From: an uncultured Clostridia bacterium
Lineage (GTDB): Bacteria; Bacillota; Clostridia; Christensenellales; UBA1242
Direction of reading: 5' to 3'
DNA: 50,497 nt
Assembly (NCBI GenBank): GCA_944377765.1
Contig: CALWFX010000010.1
Span: forward strand, 1-50,497
In this document: positions 3,475-27,552 of the stretch, in pieces
Layout: each line of letters starts with the position of its first letter
Position numbering within the stretch: position 1 is the stretch's first letter
The notes under the pieces: generated by a model
Seen by the model: the letters and a program-made list of their open reading frames with translations, nothing else
Database searches by the model: none
Told to the model about the DNA's origin: nothing
Translations under genes and position numbers: made by a program

Positions 3475-3548
3475 TATAATATATAATTTTTACTTACATA
3501 TTTTGATTAAATTTTACTTCATTTGCAAATAGTAAATAAGGAGGCTTC

Positions 3549-3617
3549 ATGAAAAAAATCGCATTTGGTTTTTTAACTGTATTGATGCTTTTAGGAGGAG
3601 TTATTCTTTCGGCTTGT
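3549..3617 (+). other. type II (lipoprotein) signal peptide with lipobox Cys23
   Basis: MKKIAFGFLTVLMLLGGVILSAC has a basic n-region, a hydrophobic core, and L-S-A-C with the Cys codon TGT at 3615-3617. Confidence 0.8.
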
Positions 3618-6600
3618 GGCGAAAAGAATATATATCTTTCTGTGTCTTCTTCGGAAGTTGTTATTTATACAAATTATGAGAATTCAGAATTCAACTATCA
3701 GCGTGCAAATGTTTCTGTTACTCTTGAAGGCTCAGAAGATGGAGTTGGACTTCAAATTGAATCTGGAAAAGACATAATTAAATGCACATCTCCTGAAAAA
3801 GATAGACAAGGAAATTATAATTTTACTATTGAAGAAATTGGAGAAAAAAGCGGTAAGGCTCAAATTAAAGTTTATTCAATTGAAGATCCTTCAATTTACA
3901 AATATGTTAATGTAACTTCTTATACATACCTTACAAAATATCAAGCACTTGACCTTAAAGATGAGGATGGAAGAAGTGGGCTTTATGTAATTAAAGGAGC
4001 ATCTCAAGACTTAACACCTTCAAAATATTTTAATTTTTTGCCAAGTGAAGCGAATGTTGTTGATACAATTTGGACTTTTCAAGGTGGTGATGGACAAGAT
4101 AGTGGACTTACAACTTTGCAGTATGATGGCGATATTATAGCGGAAATTGTGGACAATAAGACCTTGGTGGTTTATGATGAATGTTTTTATCCCACCATAA
4201 CATTGTTTGCTTCTTTTGAAAGACAAACATCAATTTTTGAAACTGTAACTTTTCAAGTTATTGACAGTTCAAGCATAACTTCATTTAAACTTGGCGACAC
4301 AACTTTAATTTCTCAAGATACAACAACAGGCGATATTATTTACGATAATTTTATGGCTGATTTAGTGAGAAATGATGCAAACAATTCTTCTGTTCAAGGT
4401 CAGATGGTTATTTCCACTTTTGACAAAAATATTGAATTGGATGTTGAAGCATATTTTTTAAATTCTAATGGAACTAAATCATATATTGAAAATTATGAAG
4501 ACTACTTTAAACTTGATGTGCAATATTTACCATATAACGATGTAACAGAAGAGATGACAATTAATTTCACTCTTGATGCTCTTTATGACGATTCTTCATT
4601 TGAAATGAAATATGGCGATATCCATATAAACTTTGTTTTAAAATATAGCGAATACACCTACTCAATCAACACTTCTAATTGCGATATTAAACTTAATACT
4701 TACTTTATTCCTGAAAGTATTTTGGTTAGAGATGGCGGAGTTAGCAATATTGGCGGAAACACAATAGATTTATATTCTCAATATTTTTCTTCCTATGGTT
4801 ATGAAATTAATGTTAATGTTTACCCTGATGATGTTGCTTTGAAAGATAGCACCTTTAAGATTAGCATTGATAACGCACATGAAATGGTTAATGATGAAGA
4901 TTATTTTGTGAAAATTTATTACAAAGATAATCCAACAAGACAAGTTAAATTTACAAGGGTGGAAAACACTGACACCTTTGTTTCAGAAGCAATTGCAAAT
5001 GGCACAAGTTTATATTTTACAAGTGGAAACATTTCAAGTAAGTCAGGTCTTAAAATAGATTTTTATGCATCTGCAAATCCATATAATGCCATTCAGTCAA
5101 TTTATGCCAATTTGTTTAAAATTTCAGAGTCTTCTATAATGAAAGTTATGGAAATTGACACCGAAACAGGAGAAACAGAAGATTTTAATTTTGACCAAAC
5201 TTTCTATATTTCTTCTTCTGAAACTTCTTTAAAAACAAAAGAATTTAATTTAAGAATTATGGGAATGGCTTCAATTGCAGGCTTGGAACTTGACTATGAA
5301 CAAAGTCGCAATTTTTCAATTTCAATGGAAATGACTGATAGTTTTGAAGATACTGAAGATGTTAACAACTCTTATGTTGATATTAAGGTAACAATTAGTT
5401 TAACAAGAAGCAATTTTGCTCAAGATTTTAAATTTTCTTTGAAACATAAAACTGGTTTACAATCTGAAATATTTAATATTTCAAGTTTTGCACCAATTGA
5501 AAAGGCAGAAGTTGTTTGTGCTGATGGTGGTTTCACAAATATATATGAGCAAGAGTATTTGGAACAAAACTTTGTTGCAGATATTGATGATGGAAACTTC
5601 ACAATTGCAGATTCCACAATTGTTGATAACTCTCTTTCAAGTTTATTAATTTCAGCAGGCTCTAATGTTGCAATTAATTTGGATTACAACAGTGCCACAT
5701 TAAATCTTGCAAACAACACTGCGGGTTACTACTTTGCTTACTTAGACTATGAAGCATTTGCGAGTCATGACCAAAATCTTGGACTTGATGGCGACACATT
5801 GACTGAAAGATTTAACAATTTGCAGTTTACTGACAGTTTGGATAACCTTACATATTTACCAATTTTTGAAAGTGCTTTTTCAACTTTAAATAACACATAT
5901 TTCTCATACACAAATGGCCAGTTTAAGGTTAGCGATAAAGAATTTGTTGTATATGTTATGGTTGTGTTTAATGGCTATAACGAATTGCATCAAGATTTAA
6001 ATTTGGTTCGTTTCTTTAGATTGGAAAGTTTTTATCCTGTTGACTCACTTAGAAGTGATATAACTGATTTGGAACTTTATTCAAAAGAAAGTTTGAGTGT
6101 TAGCGATGAGAATTTGTCTTATGCTAATGTCAATGTTACTCTTCGTTTAGATGGAAAACTTCCAACCTATTCTGACCTTTCATATTTTTCAATCTCTCTT
6201 GGTAATGGAACTTATTGCAAGGGAGAAGATGAAAGTGGAACTTTCAAGGAAAGAGCATCTCTTACTTGTGTTTCAATTTATAATGACTATGTTTCTCTTT
6301 CAAACTTTAGAGTGGATGAAAGAACTGGTGTTTTGTCATTCAGAATAAGTGCAAATTCAACAAGGTTACAAAGTAGAGTTAGAGATGTTATCACTCTTTA
6401 CTATAATTTTAAGAGTGTGGAAATTCCAACTAACATAAATTTAACAATACTTCAGGCTAATCGTGTGGAAAATGTTACATGGATAAATGAAACTGAAGAT
6501 AGTGAGATATACTTGAATATTGCAACAGATAATGTTGAAGAGCAAACTTTCACAATTTCAACTTCAATTTCGCCAGATGATGCTTATAACAGAAAACTTA

Positions 6601-21600: not shown

Positions 21601-24269
21601 CTTTAACTAATAAAGGAATTGAACATTTTGATTTAAGATTGTTATATAGTGAATATTTTGACTCTATTATTCAAGAAGGCGAAGGCATCTTTTCACAAAA
21701 AGCAACAATTAAATTTAATTATAGTTCGCCATTATCACAAGAATTTGTAAATGATGGCAAATATTCAATTGATGGTGATGGAAATGTTTTATATGATGGA
21801 AATGCTGTGACAGAAACAATGCTATTTTATGACTTAAATGATTTGAAGTTTGTATATTATGTTGTTTATAGTTCTGGTGAAGAAGAGATCAATGAAGCCC
21901 TAACATTAAATAACTCATTTAATATTGATGAATTTTTGAATTTGGGTGAAGTGAGTGAAATTCCTGAAATATTTTTAGTTGCAGATGAAATTTTAAATTA
22001 TGCAGATAATAGTGTTGACACAATTATTAAATTTAATGAAGACTATTTGGCAACAATTCCTGAAAATATAACATTTAATTTGCCAGATTATACTCCAGTT
22101 GATGATAGTCTTGATAGCAATTTATATTGTGGTGAAGAAAAAGTATCTTACAATTTCAATATAGCAAATGGAACTATTAATGAAATTGAAGGAGAATTAC
22201 TAAATGATATTGATAATTCAATTAAAGTGACTGAAAATACAAATCAATATAATTTTGAATACATTGGCAATGGTGTAAATGATGAAGAATCATTAAAAGA
22301 AAAATATAATGGAATTCCATATGGTGCACAAAATTTCGATGTAACATTTAATGTAAATGCTAATTTCAACTATACATCAAATAATTTAGTTTACAACGCA
22401 GAAGATTTAAGTGGAAATAATATAATTATTAAAAATAATATTTATTATGATGATCAAATATCTGTTACAGGCATTAAACTCTATGGAGAAAATCATATTA
22501 TTTCACAAAACTTATCATTGTCTAACTCAAGTTACATGTTCTCGGTTGATGGAAAAGGATATGTCTCAAATTCATATTTAGTTGCTATCTTAACAATGAA
22601 TGATAGTATATATATGAATAATCAAAGGAGTGCTATTCAAGTTGAAAATACCAGCACAACAAAGAATTTATCTGTATATGGAAGCATTAGAAATATCAAT
22701 CCAAACAATGATTTAATTGTTACTGGATTGTCGTTGAAATATGATTCCTCAACTGCAACCTCTTCATCGGAAAAGAATTTTCAATCTCACTTATCTTTAA
22801 TTGGTTCAAATATAGAGGATAGCCCTATTATTAGTTCATCAAAAACTGATGGAGAAAATGTAAAAGTTAAAATTGGAGAAGTTTATATAGATAAAAATAC
22901 AACTTTAGAAGAATTAACATTATCAAGAAATACGATATTGATTTCTGGAAATGGTGGTAATGCATCTAATGGTATGGATGGAACAGGGTATGACTATTAT
23001 GGGAATGGATATTCTGGAACTGATGGTGGCAAAGGCGGAAATGCTGGTGAAATTGGAATCACGTATAAGTTGGAAGAGAAAGATGGGAAGGATGAAACAA
23101 CAATTACTAAGCCAACTGACTTAACAAAAGCAATTTCAGGAGTAGTTGGTGCTTCTGGTAATGGTGGAAATGGACATGATGGTAAGAATGCGAGCGCACA
23201 TAACGAAAATGGTTGGCGTAATGGATATACTCAATATGATTCATCACGCGGAGATGATGCTTTTAAATTTAATTATAGCACTGAGGTTAATAATGGTTTA
23301 GCCGGTGGCGGTGGGCATGGAGGAACCGCAGATACTTCTAATAAGAGTGCCTCTTCACAAAAAACCAATAGAAAATATCAAACAATTTCTGGCAATGGTG
23401 GCTCAGGTGGATTAGGGTTGATGTATTATTCTAGAGATATTAAGCTTGGAGACCGCTTTGAATACACTGATTTTGAATATCCAGACTATGATTACAAAAG
23501 TCTTTACAAAGCAACAAAATATAATGAATATTCTTCTTGGTATAAAACTGCTGGTGGTGGTGGAACTTCTGGTGATTATGAAAATGCCGCAAGTGGTGAC
23601 AAGGGAAGATTCTTTGGTGCTGGCGATGGCTTCTTTAGAGGAGATAGTTATGATGCATCAACTATAGGATATTATTGGTATGATGGTGCCAGATTATTTG
23701 GTAACTTACAACTAATTTCAACATTTAGTAATTATGGTTATTATGATGCTGAATCTGCAAATGGTTGGTATAATTTCTGGGGTAGACCTAGAAGTGCACA
23801 GTTCATTGCAGATGGTGGATTAGATATGTATAGTGGTGCTAGTGTAGAAGAAATTAAAACAGCATTTAACTATTTCTTATATGGTGGACGTGTTCATTGG
23901 AAAGCATGGACAGGAGACGGATATATTGAGAAGCCATCTTATATTGAAAGTTTGAATAGATTATTCCAAGAAAATGATAATGGAACCTATTCTTATAAAG
24001 TGCCTTCAACTTATTCAGTTAATTATCATGGTGAATGTGTATGGAAATATGCGTTTTATGGTGGCTCTGGCGGAGGAGAAGGAACAGGTGAATCTGGAAA
24101 TGGAGGAACACCTTATACGAAAATTATTTATGGGTTCTGTGGGCCTATAGAAAATTATGATAATTATTCTTATGCTAATAGAAAAGTTTTCTTCACTAGA
24201 GATGATATGGTGACATCTGCTGGTTCTTATGGACAAATTTCAAATTTAGCAAATTTAATAATTGAATAA
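3549..24269 (+). CDS. giant (6,906 aa) surface lipoprotein with multiple GLUG-motif repeat modules and a Gly/aromatic-rich C-terminal domain
   Basis: Uninterrupted 20,721-nt ORF in AT-rich DNA. AAGGAGG lies 4 nt before the ATG. The signal peptide has lipobox L-S-A-C. At least seven modules contain entry motifs such as FNSFDGNGYTIHINSF, FKGLIDGNSFTISNINL and YIDGQNHQIEFNG, and I spotted about 20 GG[ILVF][VAI]G motifs by eye (AGGIVGL, IGGIVGA, VGGLVGL, IGGLVGY...). No C-terminal TM or LPXTG. Confidence 0.93.
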   Translation: MKKIAFGFLTVLMLLGGVILSACGEKNIYLSVSSSEVVIYTNYENSEFNYQRANVSVTLEGSEDGVGLQIESGKDIIKCTSPEKDRQGNYNFTIEEIGEKSGKAQIKVYSIEDPSIYKYVNVTSYTYLTKYQALDLKDEDGRSGLYVIKGASQDLTPSKYFNFLPSEANVVDTIWTFQGGDGQDSGLTTLQYDGDIIAEIVDNKTLVVYDECFYPTITLFASFERQTSIFETVTFQVIDSSSITSFKLGDTTLISQDTTTGDIIYDNFMADLVRNDANNSSVQGQMVISTFDKNIELDVEAYFLNSNGTKSYIENYEDYFKLDVQYLPYNDVTEEMTINFTLDALYDDSSFEMKYGDIHINFVLKYSEYTYSINTSNCDIKLNTYFIPESILVRDGGVSNIGGNTIDLYSQYFSSYGYEINVNVYPDDVALKDSTFKISIDNAHEMVNDEDYFVKIYYKDNPTRQVKFTRVENTDTFVSEAIANGTSLYFTSGNISSKSGLKIDFYASANPYNAIQSIYANLFKISESSIMKVMEIDTETGETEDFNFDQTFYISSSETSLKTKEFNLRIMGMASIAGLELDYEQSRNFSISMEMTDSFEDTEDVNNSYVDIKVTISLTRSNFAQDFKFSLKHKTGLQSEIFNISSFAPIEKAEVVCADGGFTNIYEQEYLEQNFVADIDDGNFTIADSTIVDNSLSSLLISAGSNVAINLDYNSATLNLANNTAGYYFAYLDYEAFASHDQNLGLDGDTLTERFNNLQFTDSLDNLTYLPIFESAFSTLNNTYFSYTNGQFKVSDKEFVVYVMVVFNGYNELHQDLNLVRFFRLESFYPVDSLRSDITDLELYSKESLSVSDENLSYANVNVTLRLDGKLPTYSDLSYFSISLGNGTYCKGEDESGTFKERASLTCVSIYNDYVSLSNFRVDERTGVLSFRISANSTRLQSRVRDVITLYYNFKSVEIPTNINLTILQANRVENVTWINETEDSEIYLNIATDNVEEQTFTISTSISPDDAYNRKLTNYYHPLNNNSSVLDINTTSTGQSFTLTIGNQNEGGYGYLYLLPEDMVKNVDSIRKIVYYGLDDEGNLSTQAEYISLSEINGIYEDLINGTNGYVNYFLNNNNEKVYYKDVILRIKVTIADGQSEDTAIRIYSADELRNIDTRLYYRIMNDLELTNWTQLTELRGMIFGNDENITLTMSGQSLIGNLYGTVKNLTFVGAVNGGGFVADNVISGGVIENVKVDVRYDKEKAECIPSVVSGGYYVETSLIGNYIGAIAGRNEGLITSCYNYGANLTASLENGSSVAGGIVGLNYGRVENCGVEFYKFTSVESNQFSALYIGGIVGAVDWGQEQEVSPTIYNSYVYAFSLENGTVGSDIDINNVSYTKLVNYQESMERPSENGDGNVYFGEFIGYIMNLSQNKTMIENSFAFLGDLTANKNAQTNYSVIGVGDSIESSPLTLRNSYLTNFVVKENAEDGTKTLGLEFRYFLRNGENNINSPITDEQDSESVEEIYSAFDTTIWETENIDKEANFGFAYLKNVRQNVSVSVEQMIQNVEDKVLAFTGGDKAVIFKYDVNEQVVSNAVQSELDRLNTISLTELFGISSNEIRSLLVSVDRPDYLDFTTNSLSVKKTTTNLATKTVTLTLHSRMDFSESKTFEIMIVNAIPEILTTVGNNEVKDGQIVNIQTGIDNSKKVQIILDNTIYLNGQEYTLTTNSYNYFVELDNNLNAENEKYIDEQVSGNAVEFIARNDSGVNYISANISVGLLNLNSTDENSNEYAFNETIKSQRQRNLLLSSYVGANYVNADHTILNITPSEFTSFKVTINSDNPEEDLVLYINYNNERYDVENGQVKINDNLVLDVSYTLISSDNGNYEYKVLINVNNEYRHKVDTTYSMDIVVNALSQQNNSNYAKIVKFTVEKQEINDVNVNAYTVSSRFIRNNVWYYTPSNTISSALVPGGESILTMEISPSFAHYSHFIVEYEVTSQGTTGSVGLSRLSYTEGYGYYIDTSTTENRTNGIKVNPTETDLKTGVYNFRIYISSSFTANSNVKLNITFFDGNDRLETYTYNYIVDYLKEAEVLVDGAHSVMLAKGDTAEVSITLELDQTLYNNTITLENNSASITLSEITETVADSYKVYTSTLRTSVLSTLQDNKSTGAFYVKAAVSRYVNGVQEIKESYATVYLVDFTIDAEKTKVVGSTDTVNYNGVEYDAFNAYINDSKGQIAFDYTIAPENYVYDETNVKEQEAVKNLMIKRNEFIKSNYYADSQAGYYINYRYNELTGVFEEQTLKERLYYVNSDGSATAIWNGQDYIKNTTFDFGEETNGTLGIIGRQTGRVLMRLETIVIVGNTTFVYEYDFVVVVEVWTDEEVPLPIYTAEEFLTYLNGSPDDEGNTHAADYILMNDIVLDEYTPLSSQYFNSFDGNGYTIHINSFEFSTESTSLNLALFSEVAENSTIKNVRVNLYNGGQITVNLNLYTQVNVAGFALENNGIIYNCEVLAYYDEENSTSRLSGDTGLVVKFVRGNGTDPVYLTSSDVNISDVNISGFVNNNNNVITNSRVGGTSIGKIISDDTTDYYINYRLPTFTIQGQCNVSGFVGSNVGTITASFANAVQINNEMRSTTSRTAGFVLNNTGNVQTSYVQGVEVNESLFFEGSTIATTGKVAGFVYSNSGLVKNSYVNIAFEIDASRSYLSAGFVYENNEDGEITLCYSSVKMSNTDINEMSFSGVDELGNDLNLNKDGITYSYYYSESRNDQSTQASYDTGAYAITDVEYEETFYRFSFSSEENAYNGIWMMTNKGITLVSANQIAFSNRYIEYSSEDEYSLFYNTLTDYASYRQIDLSYGSINNPIIIRNADDFAKATGKAQELEISSYKKYYNDREVFGNYRLVNNIDFSEIDQNTDGTDDIKLTTTDKDFKGLIDGNSFTISNINLGGSASVENYGIFKRIVDNAVIMNLGLQVASVHNSNANIVGTLAGTVIDSRLISINLSPMERSDDEEIQAVSIAGYNIVGGLVGLVMGDSKLSDIQVTDIDVDSGYYSASKEVNGNKSYTGVELRNLVEMNSSLTSKVRFVSYAGGIAGYVDIYDSITDSFVRYSPSTQVTSYNIATIRVLNSVDIYGEVAGGLFGYIGESTLAYDLGLEINADMALNTPSYITAKNLYAGGIVGENHGGLYAIYAEHTRELQDLIETNIYNYYNNSSTVERGQMSIFSYTQNDTKHYGRRYNNPYYIGGLVGYAGSGYISVGYNRLNVVSNEAETFTEENKLRTLAVGGLVGYVDSKNYYASDVISGNPDVSYYLNEVYFSGVINANTAVEAGGLIGRISSTSKVAIDYVNSVPYYDLNTDINKVFSFIGGFDSALPSNLYVLDTAGGYNDLMTAGGVSGGTGSVPSVGIMTEYGAVDAETLNVVKPINDNYSLNFDENSYLKIDRIASSSMSTLYTKMNNYFLENGWDITQWEHEVDTLYPRIVLTPKLSVVYLDASENSIRNVMDLIENGSTMTIVVRGRVDENSDAAHTDVDLRDYINASNRFSNYAGKIVSYYSYMNNSTEEGTVSEEQRDNAGKLIGGKTGARVGLIIDQPIFENAGTNFEMEDINIYYARSDYAPNSISSLLINGTANDATFTNVNIYLNESITLEANAQGYAGLIVNRANSTTFSNITINLRNSSTQDIKIKFETYNGNSNQESNYFGLLAGYMSQASQYKGIFVSNVLINSLSSIDKPISTLNVDVDISKGDTTGDGKAIKNLYFGLWAGNASIASGNSVNTFDAMLSNLTTSVIKETNITINSSDNVELSNLYVGGYFGSVGTTSITRYNADADSGVNLSTLVENLNIIQNIGVSNIYAGLVAGTVNSTNFNFEENENQKDLMLGLSGSYRQAKDKKIGNVSVGAIFGQTNANITLGQKVDVNFNVLGNYVTTTQAEVSTLANEDEVKGIYIKNDMALDDNSDIKLDTNNNAQTDYLQVAGIANVGSLIGNMVGGTMRYRAMDIKGEIQIKNSGDDDTNAGVFNVGAIGYLGGGEIRSGETTDSSIIKTNILVNNSSDAFVNVGGFIGGISDATTILSIGNLAYVGNVVSFAKNLVFGGIVGDAGYASSSDLISNAVFGGNLRHYVRSNIDNKTEYTDGILIAGGIVGNINIPKSSVNITEVYTYGNIFVNYPNNSTKYLNKYCFGGIVGAIGALTASSSETTNTVSVTNAYSLLTNFNDKITYNGYTTTDYVANAIVGFGDGSSNLGDNVYYSSGVNLAYQANENANDVSYGVYVEDYRGYTIQNDTIGNTTSETAETPSDETNIVGEIKNMLTTNYNGLIDANDINKLNPTLINNNSFTEDGKGIDNNEELINNANDNDIKWYYANSDISINNGRYITDLKNAVVVGNGRTISYQLIATASNDYGIFQNVGGINDTFTAISGFVAEINLDIELDKEDKTNYIGGFISKSKIKDDNSLYYNSVIIYGIGVTGQIEIGGDGSANVGGLAGVMYNGLISNSFTDVNIIYHGGVQRSETNSVVSYVASSNVSSIANNTGDSMVDIIDTFAGGAVQSYVSANLYSFNGILSVGTTNNGEYTNANPDLRIFDSYTYSQISRVDYEFGTSGISGTFSYKGSYAGKNADEINIHSGLYFNNYNTDTNDANNTIKFTGSSTKIDDISLNYNGEVGSGYAIKLEEREDKENTETGEIEKAEPVTHSLWFNSPYRNYGYATTGFAYLRNVTVYSQARLGGIASDDPDIAQDEDGNRVELAYKTYDYTRLTNDQALGIKKDNGKIYFENDEELEVFFAVPNGGKFKQIADMYNPESEDTTTQTVTEIDAKYNFFLLYDLNLNNLTGDESWTANSDIGTEDYNTYIDGQNHQIEFNGSGNGFFGVAYADLENMRIILSSDLTTANATEEDISVGGNSETVTYEYYGVLAGELIGSATNITVSGNIEVRGDSNRVIGGLVGKLSNGSTVTAIESLVNINVAKSTSGNSGINYVGGVVGFSEGTISTSSNSGNIIVNNTSSSKNLANLTPTDGVISNLTAELPKYDDSLSDLENNTSIEGNEKVSNNLQSVIGGVAGYNGGTIEKSYNTSSVMNNYNATDASVGNLVSGGIAGYSIGDIANSFNTGYVVSGNTSNTGLAISGGIVGFGNSGEYANNINDAKVQAVSELDSGRYKITPLYSFGTNEKITNYSRTVTLRIEYNIDSESEEKDARKVYAYGIGYITNYTSNDFDNNTKMNTNKNLAYDEIVNDGNLGYIKKIFQKDYSVQRYYGADHDNDNRYDVEDSYNFAINNGDPDFKISGYDAYGFVSRLNLNYTYSFDITAFKHGYIVENTSDDYYYKRGTDFFKISITDSEPNEYRDNRAIPSGTIDVNGSTLNDSDTSGLYPGGTTSYYLSMPFYGEEGNYTYQEIISEENNHTYYGVKSDLTSNEYNIVKKELNYKYEEINKSRKVYVNSTEAESININGISYNIVNNETQLSSYTSGWNTNGSITLEIPSVSHGDKTIASSQPKIDYVEYEIKVNYGTDYQTSATLTKNSQNLTPIGSSEEIVNTGNNSYTLNYSVYYNKTDLGNALKTVLGDDYASKDYRLSVSLNYNIEYEFEDSFDLYKNTVTVNGANVSIDVVDDANKLITLGTYLKNSNATKTNGDFDIEFKDARGQRVYINVDGTILDGTDGNYGVQSINVNSAGSGMINLGDASNASAFATAINNLTMTIKYQVYGSGNYVIPVESGRFEIESEISKSYRFTSVESGLNYNDDYSDSYNIEASESKIIFSVYENKLIEHDIVAVSFVYNPLNTGVTFEYNTDSGFVKHTGVIEGWGGTGSVEYVINENTIEFTCVNSGDINTFINSFKSITKLNIEKEKSSLEIEPIITQSVGDGLVTVNYKFDGVLPSGYTYNSQTNVITRNEGTSVNLTLNYVKDGDINIQDASSVTLSSNNDKIVIYYIKNTFEKNIISGNTLNVKIEDSNKVEYEFYRENSDLQTGGLLVSKDYSVTKVISENFPIRIARNVTRQGVGILTYDYEQATIYDVNNSYSIAVLKDGDKEDFYLIYKGTDGSLTNKGIEHFDLRLLYSEYFDSIIQEGEGIFSQKATIKFNYSSPLSQEFVNDGKYSIDGDGNVLYDGNAVTETMLFYDLNDLKFVYYVVYSSGEEEINEALTLNNSFNIDEFLNLGEVSEIPEIFLVADEILNYADNSVDTIIKFNEDYLATIPENITFNLPDYTPVDDSLDSNLYCGEEKVSYNFNIANGTINEIEGELLNDIDNSIKVTENTNQYNFEYIGNGVNDEESLKEKYNGIPYGAQNFDVTFNVNANFNYTSNNLVYNAEDLSGNNIIIKNNIYYDDQISVTGIKLYGENHIISQNLSLSNSSYMFSVDGKGYVSNSYLVAILTMNDSIYMNNQRSAIQVENTSTTKNLSVYGSIRNINPNNDLIVTGLSLKYDSSTATSSSEKNFQSHLSLIGSNIEDSPIISSSKTDGENVKVKIGEVYIDKNTTLEELTLSRNTILISGNGGNASNGMDGTGYDYYGNGYSGTDGGKGGNAGEIGITYKLEEKDGKDETTITKPTDLTKAISGVVGASGNGGNGHDGKNASAHNENGWRNGYTQYDSSRGDDAFKFNYSTEVNNGLAGGGGHGGTADTSNKSASSQKTNRKYQTISGNGGSGGLGLMYYSRDIKLGDRFEYTDFEYPDYDYKSLYKATKYNEYSSWYKTAGGGGTSGDYENAASGDKGRFFGAGDGFFRGDSYDASTIGYYWYDGARLFGNLQLISTFSNYGYYDAESANGWYNFWGRPRSAQFIADGGLDMYSGASVEEIKTAFNYFLYGGRVHWKAWTGDGYIEKPSYIESLNRLFQENDNGTYSYKVPSTYSVNYHGECVWKYAFYGGSGGGEGTGESGNGGTPYTKIIYGFCGPIENYDNYSYANRKVFFTRDDMVTSAGSYGQISNLANLIIE
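6984..8155 (+). repeat. GLUG-type module A of the 6,906-aa protein (aa about 1146-1535; approximate)
   Basis: IRIYSADELRNID...GMIFGNDENITLTMSGQSLIGNLYGTVKNLTFVG, then IGAIAGRNEGLITSCYNYG, VAGGIVGLNYGRVENCG and YIGGIVGAV. It ends near TIWETENIDKEANFGFAYLKNV. Confidence 0.6.
10650..11960 (+). repeat. GLUG-type module B (aa about 2368-2804; approximate), paralogous to 46856-48100
   Basis: PIYTAEEFLTYL...FNSFDGNGYTIHINSF...IKNVRVNLYNG, then NVAGFALENNGIIYNCEV, NVSGFVGSNVGTITASF, RTAGFVLNNTGNVQTSYVQG, KVAGFVYSNSGLVKNSYVN and LSAGFVYENNEDGEITLCYSS. Confidence 0.65.
11133..11166 (+). repeat. perfect 15-bp in-frame tandem duplication (2 copies plus a partial third)
   Basis: tctgatgtaaatatt occurs at 11133-11147 and again at 11148-11162, followed by tctg. 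It encodes SDVNI-SDVNI. Confidence 0.9.
12072..13935 (+). repeat. GLUG-type module C (aa about 2842-3462; approximate), paralogous to 48209-49710
   Basis: NPIIIRNADDFAKATGK...YRLVNNIDFSEIDQ...FKGLIDGNSFTISNINLGGSASVENYGIFKRI, then VGGLVGLVMG, YAGGIAGYVD, VAGGLFGYIG, YAGGIVGENHG, YIGGLVGYAGSG, AVGGLVGYVD and EAGGLIGRIS. It ends near WEHEVDTLYPRIVL. Confidence 0.65.
13950..16330 (+). repeat. GLUG-like degenerate repeat region D (aa about 3468-4260; approximate)
   Basis: Serial Y-x-G-[LG]-x-x-G motifs: YAGLIVNRAN, YFGLLAGYMS, YFGLWAGNAS, YVGGYFGSVG, YAGLVAGTVN, VGGFIGGISD, FGGIVGDAGY, IAGGIVGNIN and FGGIVGAIG. Confidence 0.5.
16520..17650 (+). repeat. GLUG-type module E (aa about 4325-4700; approximate)
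   Basis: ITDLKNAVVVGNGRTISYQL...YGIFQNVGG...ISGFVAEINLD...YIGGFISKS...NVGGLAGVMYNGLISNSFTD. It ends near GFAYLRNVTVYS. Confidence 0.5.
17815..18980 (+). repeat. GLUG-type module F (aa about 4756-5144; approximate)
   Basis: YNFFLLYDLNLNN...YIDGQNHQIEFNGSGNGFFGVAYADLENMRI, then YYGVLAGELIGSATN, VIGGLVGKLSNG, YVGGVVGFSEGTIS, VIGGVAGYNGGTIEKSYN, VSGGIAGYSIGDIANSFN and ISGGIVGFGNSG. Confidence 0.55.
22947..24266 (+). other. C-terminal glycine-run / aromatic-rich domain of the 6,906-aa protein (last about 440 aa)
   Basis: Short Gly-runs (GNGGNASNGMDGTG, GTDGGKGGNAG, GASGNGGNGHDG, AGGGGHGGTAD, SGNGGSGGLG, AGGGGTSGD, GGSGGGEGTGESGNGG) alternate with Tyr/Trp/Phe/Asp-rich segments (FEYTDFEYPDYDYKSLY, GYYWYDGARLF, NGWYNFWGRP). 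Confidence 0.7.
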
Positions 24270-24298
24270 AATAATAATATATAAAAGGAGAAAGGGTT

Positions 24299-25084
24299 AT
24301 GGTTAACAACGATGATATTTCGCACGAGGGACACAGAAAAAGATTGCTGGACCTTGCTGTTAATGCTGGAATTGACAATATGAGTGATGTTCAAGTTGTG
24401 GAATATATGCTAACTTACATTTTTCCGCGTGGAGATGTAAATCCTTTGGCTCATAGACTTCTTGACACTTATGGAAATTTAACTGCCATTATCGACGCTT
24501 CATATTTTGACTTAATGAATGTTAAAGGCTTAAATGAAAGAAGTGCTAAAAAGATTTCAATGCTTGGCGAGTTATTCTTTGGCTACACAACTGCAAAATT
24601 GAGAAAGAAATGGCATGTTAGCAATCTTGCTGAAATTCTTGATGTTGTTGAAGACAGTCTTCGTTTTAGAACAACTGAAAACCTTCTCCTTTTGGGACTT
24701 AGTCCTGCAAATTATATTTGTGGACGAAAAAGATTGAATTTATTTAAAGTTGATGAAGTGTCAATACCTGTTATGGAACTTACTGCGTTTATTTCTTCAG
24801 TTAAACCAACTTCACTTGTTGTTGCTCATTGTCATCCATATGGAGAAGCGTTCCCATCAAAAAGCGACAAAAGTGCTTTCAAAATGGTTAAGAATATATG
24901 CTATAATTGTGGTGTGAATTTAATTGAAAGTTTGATTGTTGGTGAAAATGGTGTTTATGGTCAGGTTAAAGACAGCATGCTTAGAACTTACCATGACATT
25001 GATGCTGTTAAAGAAAATTTGTTAAATACAATGCAGATTTCAAAAGGAAAATTGGTGGACACAAATAAACCATCAAAAAAATAA
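24299..25084 (+). CDS. radC: RadC-family protein (HhH N-domain plus JAB/MPN metalloprotease-fold domain), paralogue 1
   Basis: The N-terminus SHEGHRKRLLDL...LTYIFPRGDVNPLAHRLLDTYGNL...VKGLNERSAKKI is RadC-type with an HhH. The JAMM motif is intact: HCHPYGEAFPSKSD (HxH-x7-S-xx-D). AGGAG lies 9 nt before the ATG. The gene starts 29 nt after the giant gene's stop with no hairpin between. Confidence 0.85.
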   Translation: MVNNDDISHEGHRKRLLDLAVNAGIDNMSDVQVVEYMLTYIFPRGDVNPLAHRLLDTYGNLTAIIDASYFDLMNVKGLNERSAKKISMLGELFFGYTTAKLRKKWHVSNLAEILDVVEDSLRFRTTENLLLLGLSPANYICGRKRLNLFKVDEVSIPVMELTAFISSVKPTSLVVAHCHPYGEAFPSKSDKSAFKMVKNICYNCGVNLIESLIVGENGVYGQVKDSMLRTYHDIDAVKENLLNTMQISKGKLVDTNKPSKK

Positions 25085-25087
25085 CAA

Positions 25088-25114
25088 ATAGACGAGTGAT
25101 TGCTCGTCTATTTT
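25088..25114 (+). terminator. intrinsic terminator after radC paralogue 1
   Basis: atagacgag (25088-25096) pairs with ctcgtctat (25103-25111), loop tgattg, then TTT(T). Confidence 0.75.
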
Positions 25115-25162
25115 AGTTATAGCAAATAGTATAAAAATTGTGTTTTGCAAGAAAATAACTTT

Positions 25163-25522
25163 ATGACAAAGAAGGATAAATTGGTTATGTCCCTTCTTTG
25201 CGAAAAGGGGCAAAAGAAAAAATCATACCTTATTTCTCCACAAGAAATTACTTCTGCTTTATCAAAGAAGTATGTTTTATCTGTTGCTGAAATTGATGAA
25301 ATTATGGTTAATCTTTCCAATGAAAATTATATTGATTTTGTTGTAAGCGACAGCAAAAAAGGATATTACTATTGTGTTACACTAAAAAAATGCGGACAAA
25401 CCTATATAACTGACACAAAAAATCAAAAGAAAACCTTGGGTATTTTGGTTTTACGCTCAATTTTTTTGGCAACTGTGAGTTTCGTCTTCGGTATAATTCT
25501 AAAAGCAATATTTAAAAGTTAA
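25163..25522 (+). CDS. hypothetical protein with a C-terminal transmembrane anchor (possible winged-helix-like N-part)
   Basis: The ORF is open from 25145 and the first ATG is at 25163 ([16 protein letters not shown]...). The C-terminal hydrophobic span is [26 protein letters not shown]. There is no clear SD, so the start is uncertain (alternative ATG at 25187). Confidence 0.5.
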
Positions 25523-25529
25523 AAAAATA

Positions 25530-25557
25530 TTGTAATTTTACATTTTTATGCTATAAT
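25530..25557 (+). promoter_or_regulatory. extended -10 promoter abutting the uvrB start codon (leaderless-type arrangement)
   Basis: TTGTAA (25530-25535), 16-nt spacer, TGcTATAAT (25549-25557). The uvrB ATG at 25564 lies 6 nt after the -10 and there is no SD. Confidence 0.5.
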
Positions 25558-25563
25558 TGTTGT

Positions 25564-27552
25564 ATGAAAAATAATAATGAAAATAAGGAATATAAATTTG
25601 AGTTAGTTAGTAAATATCAGCCAGCAGGCGATCAGCCTAAAGCGATTGAAAAACTTGTGGAAGGACTTGAAGATGGTTTGAAAGAACAGGTTTTGTTGGG
25701 AGTTACTGGTTCTGGTAAAACTTTTACTATGGCAAATATTATTCAAAAAGTAAACAAGCCAACCTTGGTTATTGCTCACAATAAAACTTTGGCTGCGCAA
25801 CTTTGCAACGAGTTTCGAGAGTTTTTTCCAAACAATCGTGTGGAATATTTTGTTTCATATTATGATTATTATCAACCTGAAGCATATATTGTTTCAAGTG
25901 ATACTTACATCGAAAAAGATATGAGTGTGAACGATGATATCGACAAACTTCGTTCGTCTGCAACTTTTTCTCTTCTTGAAAGGCGCGATGTTATTGTTGT
26001 GGCGTCTGTTTCTTGCATCTATGGGTTAGGTATACCTGATGAATACTTAAAATTACACATTTCTCTTCGCCCCGGAGAAGAATATGACAGGGATGAATTG
26101 ATTAATGAGCTTATCAATATTCAATATTCCAGAAACGACATTGATTTTAAAAGAACAACTTTTCGCGTGAAAGGGGACACTATAGATATTTTTCCAGCAA
26201 ACCAATCTGAGTCTGCAATTAAAGTGCGTTTTTTTGGAGATGAAATTGAAAAAATTTATGAATTTGACCCAGTTACTGGAAATTTATTAAGAGAACTTAA
26301 TTATATTGCCATTTATCCTGCAACTCACTATGCTGTTGGTGGGGAAAGAATGAAAAATGCTCTTGCTCAGATTGAAGAAGATAGACTTAAGGCAATTGAA
26401 GATTTTAAAGAGCATGGCAAACCGCTTGAAGCAGAAAGAATTGGGCAACGAGTGGCATATGACGTTGAAATGATGCGTGAAGTTGGTTATTGCAGTGGAA
26501 TTGAAAATTATTCGCGATATTTTGATGGAAGAAAACCTGGTGAAGCACCATATACGCTTATTGATTATTTTCCAAATGATTTTTTAACCATAATTGACGA
26601 AAGCCATATGACAATTCCACAAATCAGGGCTATGTATAATGGTGACCAAGCAAGAAAAAAATCTCTTGTTGAATATGGTTTCAGGTTGGAAGCAGCAAAA
26701 GACAATAGACCATTAAAATTTGATGAGTTTGAAAAGAAATTGCGTCAAACAATTTTTGTCTCTGCAACACCGGGGAAATATGAACTTGAAAAAGCGGGGC
26801 AAGTTGTGGAACAGGTTATTCGTCCAACCGGTCTTCTTGACCCAACAATTGAAATTAAACCAATTAAAAATCAAATTGAAGTTTTGATGCAGGAATGTGA
26901 AAAAACTATTGCTCGTGGAGCAAGAGTTTTGGTTACAACTTTAACTAAAAAAATGGCAGAAAGTTTAACCACATATTTAAGTGACCATTCTTTTAAAGTG
27001 AAATACCTTCATAGCGAAATTGACACTATGGAAAGGGTGGAAATCATTAATGGACTTAGGCAGGGAGAGTTTGATATTCTTGTTGGTATCAATCTTTTAA
27101 GAGAAGGGCTTGATATGCCAGAGGTTGAACTTTGTGCCATTTTGGATGCCGACAAAGAAGGCTTTTTGAGAAGTGAAGGGGCTTTAATTCAAACTATTGG
27201 AAGAGTTGCAAGAAATGCAAATGGCAGAGTTATTATGTTTGCTGATAATATAACCGACAGTATGAAAAGGGCAATTGATGAAACAAACAGAAGAAGAAAA
27301 ATTCAAATGGAATTTAATAAAGAACATGGAATTGTTCCTAAAACAATTATCAAGGAAATTAAAAACACTTTGGAGATTGGAAAGAAAGTGAGTGATGATG
27401 AAATTAAAAGGCGTGATATTCCAACTGAAATTGACCGCTTAACATCAATGATGAAAATTGCTTCCAGTCAACTTGATTTTGAAAGGGCAATTGAACTTAG
27501 GAATAAAATTGCGGTTTTGAAAAAAAGATTAAATAAAAAAGAAAATATATAA
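25564..27552 (+). CDS. uvrB: excinuclease ABC subunit B
   Basis: 662 aa. The N-terminus [18 protein letters not shown]...[17 protein letters not shown]...[13 protein letters not shown] is typical, along with helicase motifs ([30 protein letters not shown]) and a C-terminal UVR domain. Confidence 0.97.

Follow-up and report, generated by a model that had tools for sequence, protein, structure and literature searches.

The locus raises the question of what stands at the C-terminal end of a 6,906-residue surface lipoprotein whose host is a gut Clostridia bacterium with a tiny genome, and what this end might do. In the window (the whole analysed stretch of 50,497 nt) the giant ORF extends from 3549 to 24269 on the plus strand, which also carries all features described below, and its final 440 residues (aa 6467–6906; 22947–24266), which translate without a stop, form the glycine-run module.

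Architecture of the C-terminal module

All seven glycine runs quoted in the sequence-only reading were recovered as written. The conserved module begins upstream of the start proposed there, at about aa 6291 (nt 22419), and includes a beta-rich pre-module (aa 6291–6462; 22419–22934), which in the alignment is common to all relatives and precedes the first run with the pattern NIIIxxNIY...YGxxHxIxQxLSL...YGSIRN...SLIGxD...GExVxVxL. The last ~440–620 residues make up a module without annotation that combines conserved glycine runs with variable aromatic-rich segments.

The first three runs are conserved triplet repeats of 3–5 triplets each. Run 1 (GNGGNASNGMDGTG; 22947–22988) has the family consensus (x-[N/D]-G)x4, with Gly in 11–12 of 12 sequences at each third position, Asn/Asp in 8–11 of 12 in the next phase and small residues in the third. 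Run 2 (GTDGGKGGNAGEI; 23016–23054) follows (G-x-[N/D/S])x4 and then Ile or Val, and run 3 (GASGNGGNGHDGKNA; 23148–23192; consensus G-x-x-G-N-G-G-N-G-x-D-G) is the best conserved, being nearly invariant in the family alignment with Gly in all 12 sequences in six columns. The run-conservation comparison also covered run 4 (GLAGGGGHGG; 23295–23324) and run 6 (KTAGGGGTSG; 23544–23573); between them lies run 5 (SGNGGSGGLGLMYY; 23388–23429; consensus G-[NS]-G-G-x-G-G-L-G-x-x-Y), preceded by a conserved (K)TNR motif. According to the family alignment, an aromatic-rich variable region follows (aa 6679–6835; 23583–24053), in which the islands GYYW and LFGNLQxxSTFSxYG are conserved and relatives carry large lineage-specific insertions, some of them hydrophobic hairpins with no counterpart in the window protein. 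Run 7 and its conserved motif (FYGGSGGGEGTGESGNGGTPYTKIIYG; 24054–24134) have invariant columns F, GG, G, GGT, I and G in 10 of 10 aligned sequences. The C-terminal cap motif (FFTRDDMVTSAGSYG; 24189–24233) falls within aa 6826–6901, the most conserved stretch between species (46–57% identity).

Composition sets the last 440 residues apart from the remainder of the protein (Gly 18.2 vs. 7.9%, Tyr 10.2 vs. 7.1%, Trp 1.8 vs. 0.3%). The proposed alternation with aromatic spacers was borne out, Tyr, Trp and Phe accounting for 19.2% of spacer residues vs. 11.3% elsewhere in the protein. Six Gly-dense segments (10-aa windows with at least five Gly) were observed vs. a mean of 2.5 (maximum 7) in 2000 shuffles. 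The GLUG-like motif G[GF][ILVF][IVLAF][GA] is indeed absent from the module, but its 20 occurrences are confined to aa 1220–5104, so that the pattern ends ~1,800 residues ahead of the C-terminus rather than at the module; the Pfam GLUG model gave no score against the giant protein. As had been claimed, nothing equivalent to the module exists in the paralogue of 3,539 aa: its only two Gly-dense spots are of GLUG type, and a search of the rest of the genome found no second copy of the tip module.

Family affiliation and fold

The module is not a disordered tail. Its runs and cap keep their order in ~10 relatives at 35–48% identity. Searches of Pfam, NCBIfam, PHROGs and the PDB gave no match to the module. 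The suggested affiliation to ALK_LTK_GRD (PF12810) or phage gp38 was not upheld at any detectable level, since neither these nor any other Pfam model matched at E ≤ 10, PHROGs gave no match, and hhalign against two genuine PF12810 domains returned a probability of 0.06%. The layout also differs from that of gp38, which has 37 Gly in 73 residues (PMC6851490), whereas the tip has only 18% Gly and spacers of 15–155 aa, varying widely in length across the family, instead of short beta-turn loops. With 6 matches among 1.84 billion representative proteins, the tip is a new and very rare family.

AlphaFold2 reached a pLDDT of 30 when run on one sequence and of 37.5 when an alignment of 10 sequences was supplied, low scores that with so shallow an alignment are no evidence of disorder; only the pre-module reached values of 60–70, and it was modelled entirely as beta strands. 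Foldseek found nothing significant, the weak, non-significant matches all being right-handed beta-helices. A collagen-like nature had been dismissed for want of G-X-Y periodicity. Over short range such periodicity exists, as Gly–Gly autocorrelation is highest at a lag of 3 residues (31 pairs vs. 14.4 ± 3.1 expected), but the triplet stretches of runs 1–3 are far shorter than those of collagen. In hhalign run 2 aligned with the Obg motif GGPDGGNGGKGGDI, a likeness to Obg glycine motifs at the motif level only. Triplets conserved in three phases, lag-3 Gly and Obg-type motifs lend indirect support to putative polyglycine/polyproline-II (PGII/PPII) helices in the tip.

Anchoring, tail exchange and probable role

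The giant protein starts with a lipoprotein-type signal peptide read from the sequence (MKKIAFGFLTVLMLLGGVILSAC; 3549–3617), whose L-S-A-C we take, by established knowledge, to be a lipobox. The N-terminus would therefore be anchored in the membrane by lipid and the C-terminal module would be the free, far end, in agreement with the membrane-distal position suggested previously. Of 24 same-genus genomes, 21 encode a giant orthologue of 6,100–6,900 aa, but its glycine-run tail is a different one. The orthologue in G030 shares the N-terminus of the window protein, and its tip shows 64% identity over the runs and 40% over the spacers, consistent with glycine motifs separated by variable segments.

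A RadC-like JAB gene (24299–25084; Pfam RadC, 3.3e-13) follows the giant gene at a distance of 29 nt and holds this position at 6 of 6 loci with the tip family, in 12 of 14 other congeners and in L058; a toxin–immunity pair is unlikely because radC stays constant for every tip type. In two congeners an inverted repeat of ~105 nt was found, inversion of which would exchange the tail in frame. Tail replacement among orthologues and this invertible cassette fit a specificity or binding head. Together with the lipid anchor and the constant radC, this context indicates that the glycine-run tip is probably the binding or specificity head at the far end of the protein.

Layout and conservation of the C-terminal tip

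The open reading frame at 3549-24269 (+) encodes a protein of 6,906 amino acids, whose N-terminus, as read from the sequence, is a lipoprotein-type signal peptide with a lipobox (MKKIAFGFLTVLMLLGGVILSAC). Since the protein would be lipid-anchored at this end, its last ~620 aa form the free far end. The giant protein occupies about 2% of the ~1 Mb genome. In its last 440 aa (aa 6467-6906; window 22947-24266), glycine makes up 18.2% of the residues, compared to 7.9% in the remainder of the protein, and is concentrated in short runs (44% glycine, versus 10.5% in the spacers, which are 15-155 aa long). Six glycine-dense segments were counted as opposed to an average of 2.5 in shuffled sequences, and asparagine and serine are likewise abundant. 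The sequence-only reading had described glycine runs alternating with aromatic-rich spacers, and this description holds: every run that it quoted was found at 22947-24266, and Tyr, Trp, and Phe account for 19.2% of the residues in the spacers versus 11.3% elsewhere in the protein. Its statement that the GLUG pattern is abandoned in the last 440 aa is correct in that the pattern is absent there, but the pattern ends already upstream, where the last GLUG-like GG[ILV][IVA]G motif is located at aa 5104. As also noted, the 3,539-aa paralogue contains no equivalent domain, and no second copy of the module was found either in this paralogue or in the rest of the 1.03-Mb genome.

According to two alignments of tip-family sequences (A3 and A4), the conserved unit begins at ~aa 6291, upstream of the glycine-rich 440 aa, and consists of four parts. 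A beta-rich pre-module (aa 6291-6462) is followed by glycine runs 1-6, by a large aromatic-rich region with the conserved islands GYYW and LFGNLQxxSTFSxYG, and by a strongly conserved stretch of ~80 aa, in which run 7 is fused to the motif FYGG...GGTPYTxxIYG and succeeded by the cap FFTRxDxVTSAGxYG. A hydrophobic, strand-like stretch (ILISG, ISGVVG, TISG, YKTAG) lies ahead of each run. In one relative (locus L017, G412:C1), an ORF of 6,478 aa ends in a minimal window-type tip that retains all glycine runs and the terminal SAGSFG motif, with an aromatic region of only ~60 aa. This minimal form suggests that the glycine scaffold is the core of the tip and the aromatic region an insertion.

The same seven runs and the same cap, in unchanged order, were found in about 10 distinct sequences with identities of 35-48%, with 17-19 invariant columns across the alignments A3 and A4. 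The columns of the runs are nearly invariant, and the spacers vary in length and sequence. The tip family is truly rare. Six matches were obtained when 1.84 billion representative proteins were searched in full with HMMER, and two word-index searches added two further proteins. Five tip loci, all of them in metagenome-assembled genomes of uncultured Clostridia, were found in a scan with one genome per prokaryotic species, and three in a metagenome scan. Among 201 genomes from the bacterial family of the window, a profile search gave matches in four, one of which was an Obg gene (E = 3.3e-4). In all cases with DNA of sufficient length, a giant open frame of 6,478-7,209 aa ends in the module.

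A steep gradient of conservation runs along the giant protein when it is compared to its closest orthologue (genome G030, G030:C2:51571-72333), with which it shares 57% identity overall. Most 200-aa windows of the N-terminal half (aa 1-3400) are 63-84% identical, aa 5600-6200 about 30%, and the tip 44-57%, with 64% identity in the runs and 40% in the spacers. The tip hence exceeds the adjacent shaft (about 25-30%) in conservation between species, and its best-conserved part is the last ~80 aa (46-57% versus about 25-28% in the shaft just upstream). Within the species, a comparison of three near-identical strains, as the sequence-only reading had called for, revealed an essentially unchanged tip: strain P0014 is unchanged over the final ~1,400 aa of the protein, and strain P0011 has a single difference, at aa 6460. 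The variation of the tip lies between species, with no sign of within-species diversification among these three strains. Strain-level hypervariability was rejected on these counts (0 and 1 differences), and so was variation driven by a diversity-generating retroelement or by repeats, as no direct or inverted repeat of the window involves 22400-24300. In P0014, which is 99.1% identical, aa 3501-4000 account for 18 of the 62 differences, and none lies past about aa 5500.

Triplet periodicity and relation to known glycine-rich folds

The autocorrelation of glycine along the tip is dominated by lag 3 (31 versus 14.4 ± 3.1 expected), which corrects, at short range, the earlier statement that a G-X-Y periodicity is missing. 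In a set of 12 sequences, run 1 has the consensus (x-[N/D]-G)x4, with glycine at every third position in 11-12 sequences and Asn or Asp at the phase next to it in 8-11. Run 2 has the consensus (G-x-[N/D/S])x4, and run 3 the consensus G-N-G-G-N-G-x-D-G, all five glycines of which are kept in every sequence. The conservation of runs 1-3 is phase-specific, comprising a glycine phase, an Asn/Asp phase, and a small-residue phase. Three-residue periodicity with glycine at one or two phases, as required in the helices of glycine-rich polyproline-II/polyglycine-II (PPII/PGII) bundles, is present in the tip, and the pattern favours three-residue-per-turn helices as the structure of the runs. Given the glycine share of 18% and the long spacers, a PGII core would make up only a small portion of the module, in contrast to gp38 or the snow-flea antifreeze protein.

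To our knowledge, glycine-rich PPII/PGII bundles are represented by few structures, which are those of Obg, the snow-flea antifreeze protein, phage gp38, and ALK/LTK. Such domains are hard to detect by sequence. Scans of the tip, the whole giant protein, and all ten family members against Pfam (the gp38 model included), NCBIfam, and PHROGs gave no match at E ≤ 10, so that the gp38 profiles suggested in the sequence-only reading returned nothing. Searches of the PDB with the single sequence, the glycine-run half alone, or the family profile yielded nothing significant either, with Obg (1lnz) at E = 1.7 for the family profile. By these methods no membership of the tip in the gp38 or ALK/LTK families is detectable.

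The glycine-rich domain of ALK/LTK (Pfam PF12810, formerly Gly_rich and now ALK_LTK_GRD; PDB 7N00 and 7NX1) is an extracellular ligand-binding module, in which a lattice of PGII helices is packed on a TNF-like beta sandwich. It resembles the tip in that hydrophobic strands lead into GGGG-type runs and that bacterial members occur in large surface proteins; one member from the phylum of the window sits in a 1,878-aa ORF. The search against this family, also advised in the sequence-only reading, was negative at E ≤ 10 for 440-aa and 840-aa pieces of the protein (hmmscan) and for a six-frame search of the whole genome, and none of 10 tip-family members matched. Two PF12810-positive reference domains from the same phylum scored 86 and 31.8 bits (gathering score of the family, 24.5 bits), and hhalign of alignment A4 against these two domains gave a probability of 0.06%. 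The runs differ as well, being pure poly-glycine in ALK/LTK and composed of Asn/Asp-containing triplets in the tip.

A weak resemblance in motifs was observed for Obg, a cytoplasmic protein whose N-terminal "Obg fold" (Pfam PF01018, PDB 1LNZ) contains glycine motifs that form type-II helices in the crystal structure. Runs 1-3 of the tip (xGNGGNG ... GGxDGGNGGxGGxI ... NGxDG) are colinear with these motifs. PF01018 itself was not matched in the tip in the Pfam scan. In hhalign comparisons the two aligned over 36-63 columns with 39-40% identity, a probability of 18-20%, and an E-value of about 1e-3. The real alignment scored 33.1 and column shuffles 12.3 ± 2.2, but the reversed alignment reached 29.4. 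Because the reversed alignment scores nearly equal, the likeness to Obg appears to be one of motif type and not of homology, and the function of Obg is unrelated to that of the surface protein bearing the tip.

A GGX/GXX pattern, which runs 1-3 of the tip share, typifies the glycine-rich PPII bundles of the snow-flea antifreeze protein, gp38, ALK, and the mycobacterial PE_PGRS proteins (PMC13243192, PMC6851490). The adhesin gp38 of S16/T2-type phages is a "polyglycine sandwich" (PDB 6F45; Dunne et al., 2018, PMC6851490), with 37 glycines in a domain of 73 residues and short beta-turn loops. Like gp38, the tip would sit at the outermost point of a long fibre and emerge from a beta-helix-like module, and it consists of conserved glycine-rich motifs alternating with variable segments, with the variable parts as presumed specificity determinants. 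The in silico swapping of tails by DNA inversion in two congeners, described below, is a further likeness to some phage tail fibres. In contrast, sequence or profile similarity to gp38 is missing, and a compact domain of more than 50% glycine with short loops was not found in the 440-aa tip, which has seven runs, 18% glycine, and long aromatic spacers. Moreover, gp38 is a separate phage protein that caps a trimer, whereas the tip is fused to a cellular lipoprotein of 6,900 aa.

The PE_PGRS domains and the snow-flea antifreeze protein, both glycine-rich PPII bundles (PMC13243192), share with the tip the GGX/GXX triplets with Asn or Ala at the third phase, and PE_PGRS proteins are surface-exposed. 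Their GGX arrays are long and nearly continuous, unlike the short runs and large, folded-looking spacers of the tip, and the giant protein has neither a PE domain nor ESX secretion and belongs to another phylum.

Structure prediction by AlphaFold2 gave a pLDDT of 30.2 for the single tip sequence and of 37.5 for the ten-sequence alignment of aa 6291-6906, values too low to judge a PGII fold. Only the pre-module reached a pLDDT of 60-70 in the ten-sequence model, in which it consisted entirely of beta strands. A Foldseek search with this model returned nothing at E ≤ 0.001; the weak, non-significant matches were all right-handed beta-helices and fitted the pre-module only. Low pLDDT is expected for an alignment of 10 sequences, and the PGII domain of gp38 was itself a hard prediction target that was modelled poorly in CASP13 (PMC6851490).

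Tails of the orthologues and putative inversion cassettes

A giant orthologue of 6,100-6,900 aa is kept by 21 of 24 congeners, with the window-type tip restricted to few species. Among the tails read in 14 other orthologues, 12 contain a series of glycine runs and two (in genomes G016 and G021) do not. These tails differ in their spacers, in total length (270-690 aa past a YGxxRN motif), and in distal sequence, and tail replacement has taken place between species. The tail of the orthologue in genome G008, for example, reads ILIAGDGENGADGDDG ... GLSGNGGNGGNGGNG ... SGNGGIGGFG ... TSAGGGG ... WTSGExxNxAGxFG, and some others carry triplets of the type GKDGADG/GDDGEDG. In one congener (locus L023, G003:C5), the giant ORF continues for ~220 residues past the usual terminal WTSxxxxNxxGGF motif; this extension is rich in Lys, Asn, and Trp and shows no similarity to other tails.

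In two congeners, inverted repeats are located within the 3' part of the giant gene and downstream of it. The repeats measure 103 nt (98% identity) at positions 3722-3824 and 5013-5115 of locus L026 (G006:C9), and 106 nt (87% identity) at 3538-3643 and 4886-4991 of locus L027 (G007:C2). In silico inversion of the ~1.4-kb segment creates an alternative in-frame tail in both genomes, swapping the last ~190-300 aa. Both predicted tails of G006 have a length of 227 aa, with 52% identity over the first ~110 aa and unrelated sequences in the distal ~120 aa, and those of G007 would be 337 and 139 aa long. No inversion cassette was detected in the window, where no inverted repeat touches 22400-24300, or in 16 other loci. 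Well-known invertible tail-fibre segments are the G segment of phage Mu and the C segment of P1, and shufflons are of a similar kind; their recombinase sites span ~26 bp. The cassettes of G006 and G007 resemble the Mu and P1 segments in that inverted repeats bracket an alternative in-frame C-terminal tail, but differ in the repeat length of about 105 nt and in that no serine invertase or recombinase was found in either genome. By analogy with the logic of invertible phage tail-fibre segments, through which receptor specificity is switched, this arrangement marks the tail as a probable specificity module of the giant protein family, and the cassettes offer a testable handle on changes in attachment.

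The tips of several relatives contain a hydrophobic, Gly/Ala-rich two-helix hairpin resembling a glycine zipper, with Kyte-Doolittle values of up to 2.1 over 19 aa. It is found in proteins P0005 (aa ~740-790) and P0007 (aa ~222-270) and in the tails of loci L006, L007 (protein P0008), L016/L019 (genome G484), and L024 (genome G002), where it is inserted past the LFGNLQMTSTFSYYG island and ahead of the FYGG motif; the tips of the window and of G030 lack it. The hairpin could be membrane-inserting or buried.

A proposed distal binding head and alternative explanations

We infer that the tip is a distal binding or specificity head with a PGII-type fold, a proposal that we consider about equally probable to be right or wrong. 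The giant protein would be a fibre-like surface lipoprotein with a very long, probably beta-helix-rich shaft and the tip at its far end. The glycine runs would fold as short left-handed helices with three residues per turn (PGII/PPII type), whose all-glycine and small-residue faces would let them pack together as a compact core. Displayed around it as a ligand-binding surface would be the Asn/Asp phase, the spacers rich in Tyr and Trp, and the insertions specific to single lineages, and the head may set what the cell attaches to, be it a partner cell or a glycan or protein of the host. If so, it is the tip that would determine the specificity of a structure that probably serves as the principal contact organ in a large, uncultured group of gut Clostridia with reduced genomes, and a new family with its own motif grammar would widen the class of glycine-rich PPII/PGII bundles.

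The main competing explanation, a binding or assembly domain of an ordinary novel beta-rich fold, seems rather unlikely to us. The runs would in this case be tight turns or loops instead of PGII helices, for example Asn-Gly turns of a beta-solenoid that continues the upstream beta-helix; NG dipeptides are classic turn formers. The predicted strands of the pre-module, the beta-helix proteins among the weak Foldseek matches, the strand-like stretch preceding every run, and the lack of any PGII family detectable by sequence are all in agreement with such a fold. The strict three-residue phase over 9-12 consecutive residues, however, is unlike the turns of beta-solenoids, and the dominance of lag 3 and the resemblance to the glycine motifs of Obg also argue for helices. 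Even if the fold is not of the PGII type, the tip represents a conserved domain family that lacks annotation and merits an entry in Pfam. Period-3 glycine has further been considered as a sign of collagen-like segments through which three giant chains would trimerise at their ends, or of a Ca2+-binding RTX-type beta-roll, to both of which we attach hardly any probability. Run 3 reads GGNGADGLN in most relatives and so fits one nonapeptide GGxGxDxUx, but tandem nonapeptides were not found in the tip, and this single unit is imperfect in the window, where a Lys takes the hydrophobic position. Uninterrupted (G-X-Y)n stretches were not found beyond 4-5 triplets; runs of 3-5 triplets with long spacers between them are far below collagen-like domains, and neither HemolysinCabind nor Collagen was matched in Pfam at E ≤ 10. 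That the tip is not collagen-like was also the view of the sequence-only reading.

A delivered effector, that is a contact-dependent, membrane-active or toxic C-terminal domain of a giant protein similar to polymorphic toxins, would explain a conserved trunk with a C-terminus that varies between species, and also the hydrophobic hairpin in several relatives, but is improbable in our view. In all six loci with the window-type tip, the giant gene is directly followed by radC, as it also is in locus L058 and, despite their different tails, in 12 of 14 other congeners; since the neighbour stays the same, the tail has no co-varying immunity gene. The scans of Pfam, NCBIfam, and PHROGs detected no toxin or pre-toxin domain, and both results argue against a polymorphic toxin system. 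In addition, the hairpin is missing from the window protein, and different tip types have the glycine scaffold in common, whereas the tips of polymorphic toxins usually are unrelated folds. Even less credible is a low-complexity, largely disordered glycine-rich tail acting as flexible spacer or sticky end, the outcome that the sequence-only reading had named as speaking against its own proposal. A pLDDT of about 30 throughout, the lack of database matches, and the abundance of Gly, Asn, and Ser are consistent with disorder, but the first is expected from the small alignment, and PGII domains such as gp38 were hard prediction targets. The conservation of ordered motifs at 35-48% identity, the invariant columns, the aromatic content of the spacers, and a conservation above that of the neighbouring shaft argue against a disordered tip.

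Extending the proposal of a distal head, the giant lipoproteins might be cellular counterparts of the long tail fibres of phages, with an exchangeable head built on an undescribed PGII-type scaffold that displays aromatic loops. We put this forward tentatively and doubt it more than we believe it. The membrane-proximal shaft may be conserved and the distal shaft fast-evolving in such a system, and specificity may be retuned by head replacement, by inversion of tail DNA (G006 and G007), and, for part of the lineages, by the addition of a glycine-zipper hairpin that inserts into membranes. The window tip would then found a new family of PGII heads that is bacterial instead of viral and recognises other cells.

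Downstream of the tip, the gene order of the genus (window 24299-27552; loci L003-L007, L021-L034, and L058) is giant gene, radC, a small protein, and uvrB. The small protein has a C-terminal transmembrane segment and the motif MLDxKSxLVLKILxKE, and is often followed by a second small, paralogue-like ORF before uvrB. The succession of the giant gene, radC, and uvrB is independent of the tip type, and is rearranged in G002 and G014.
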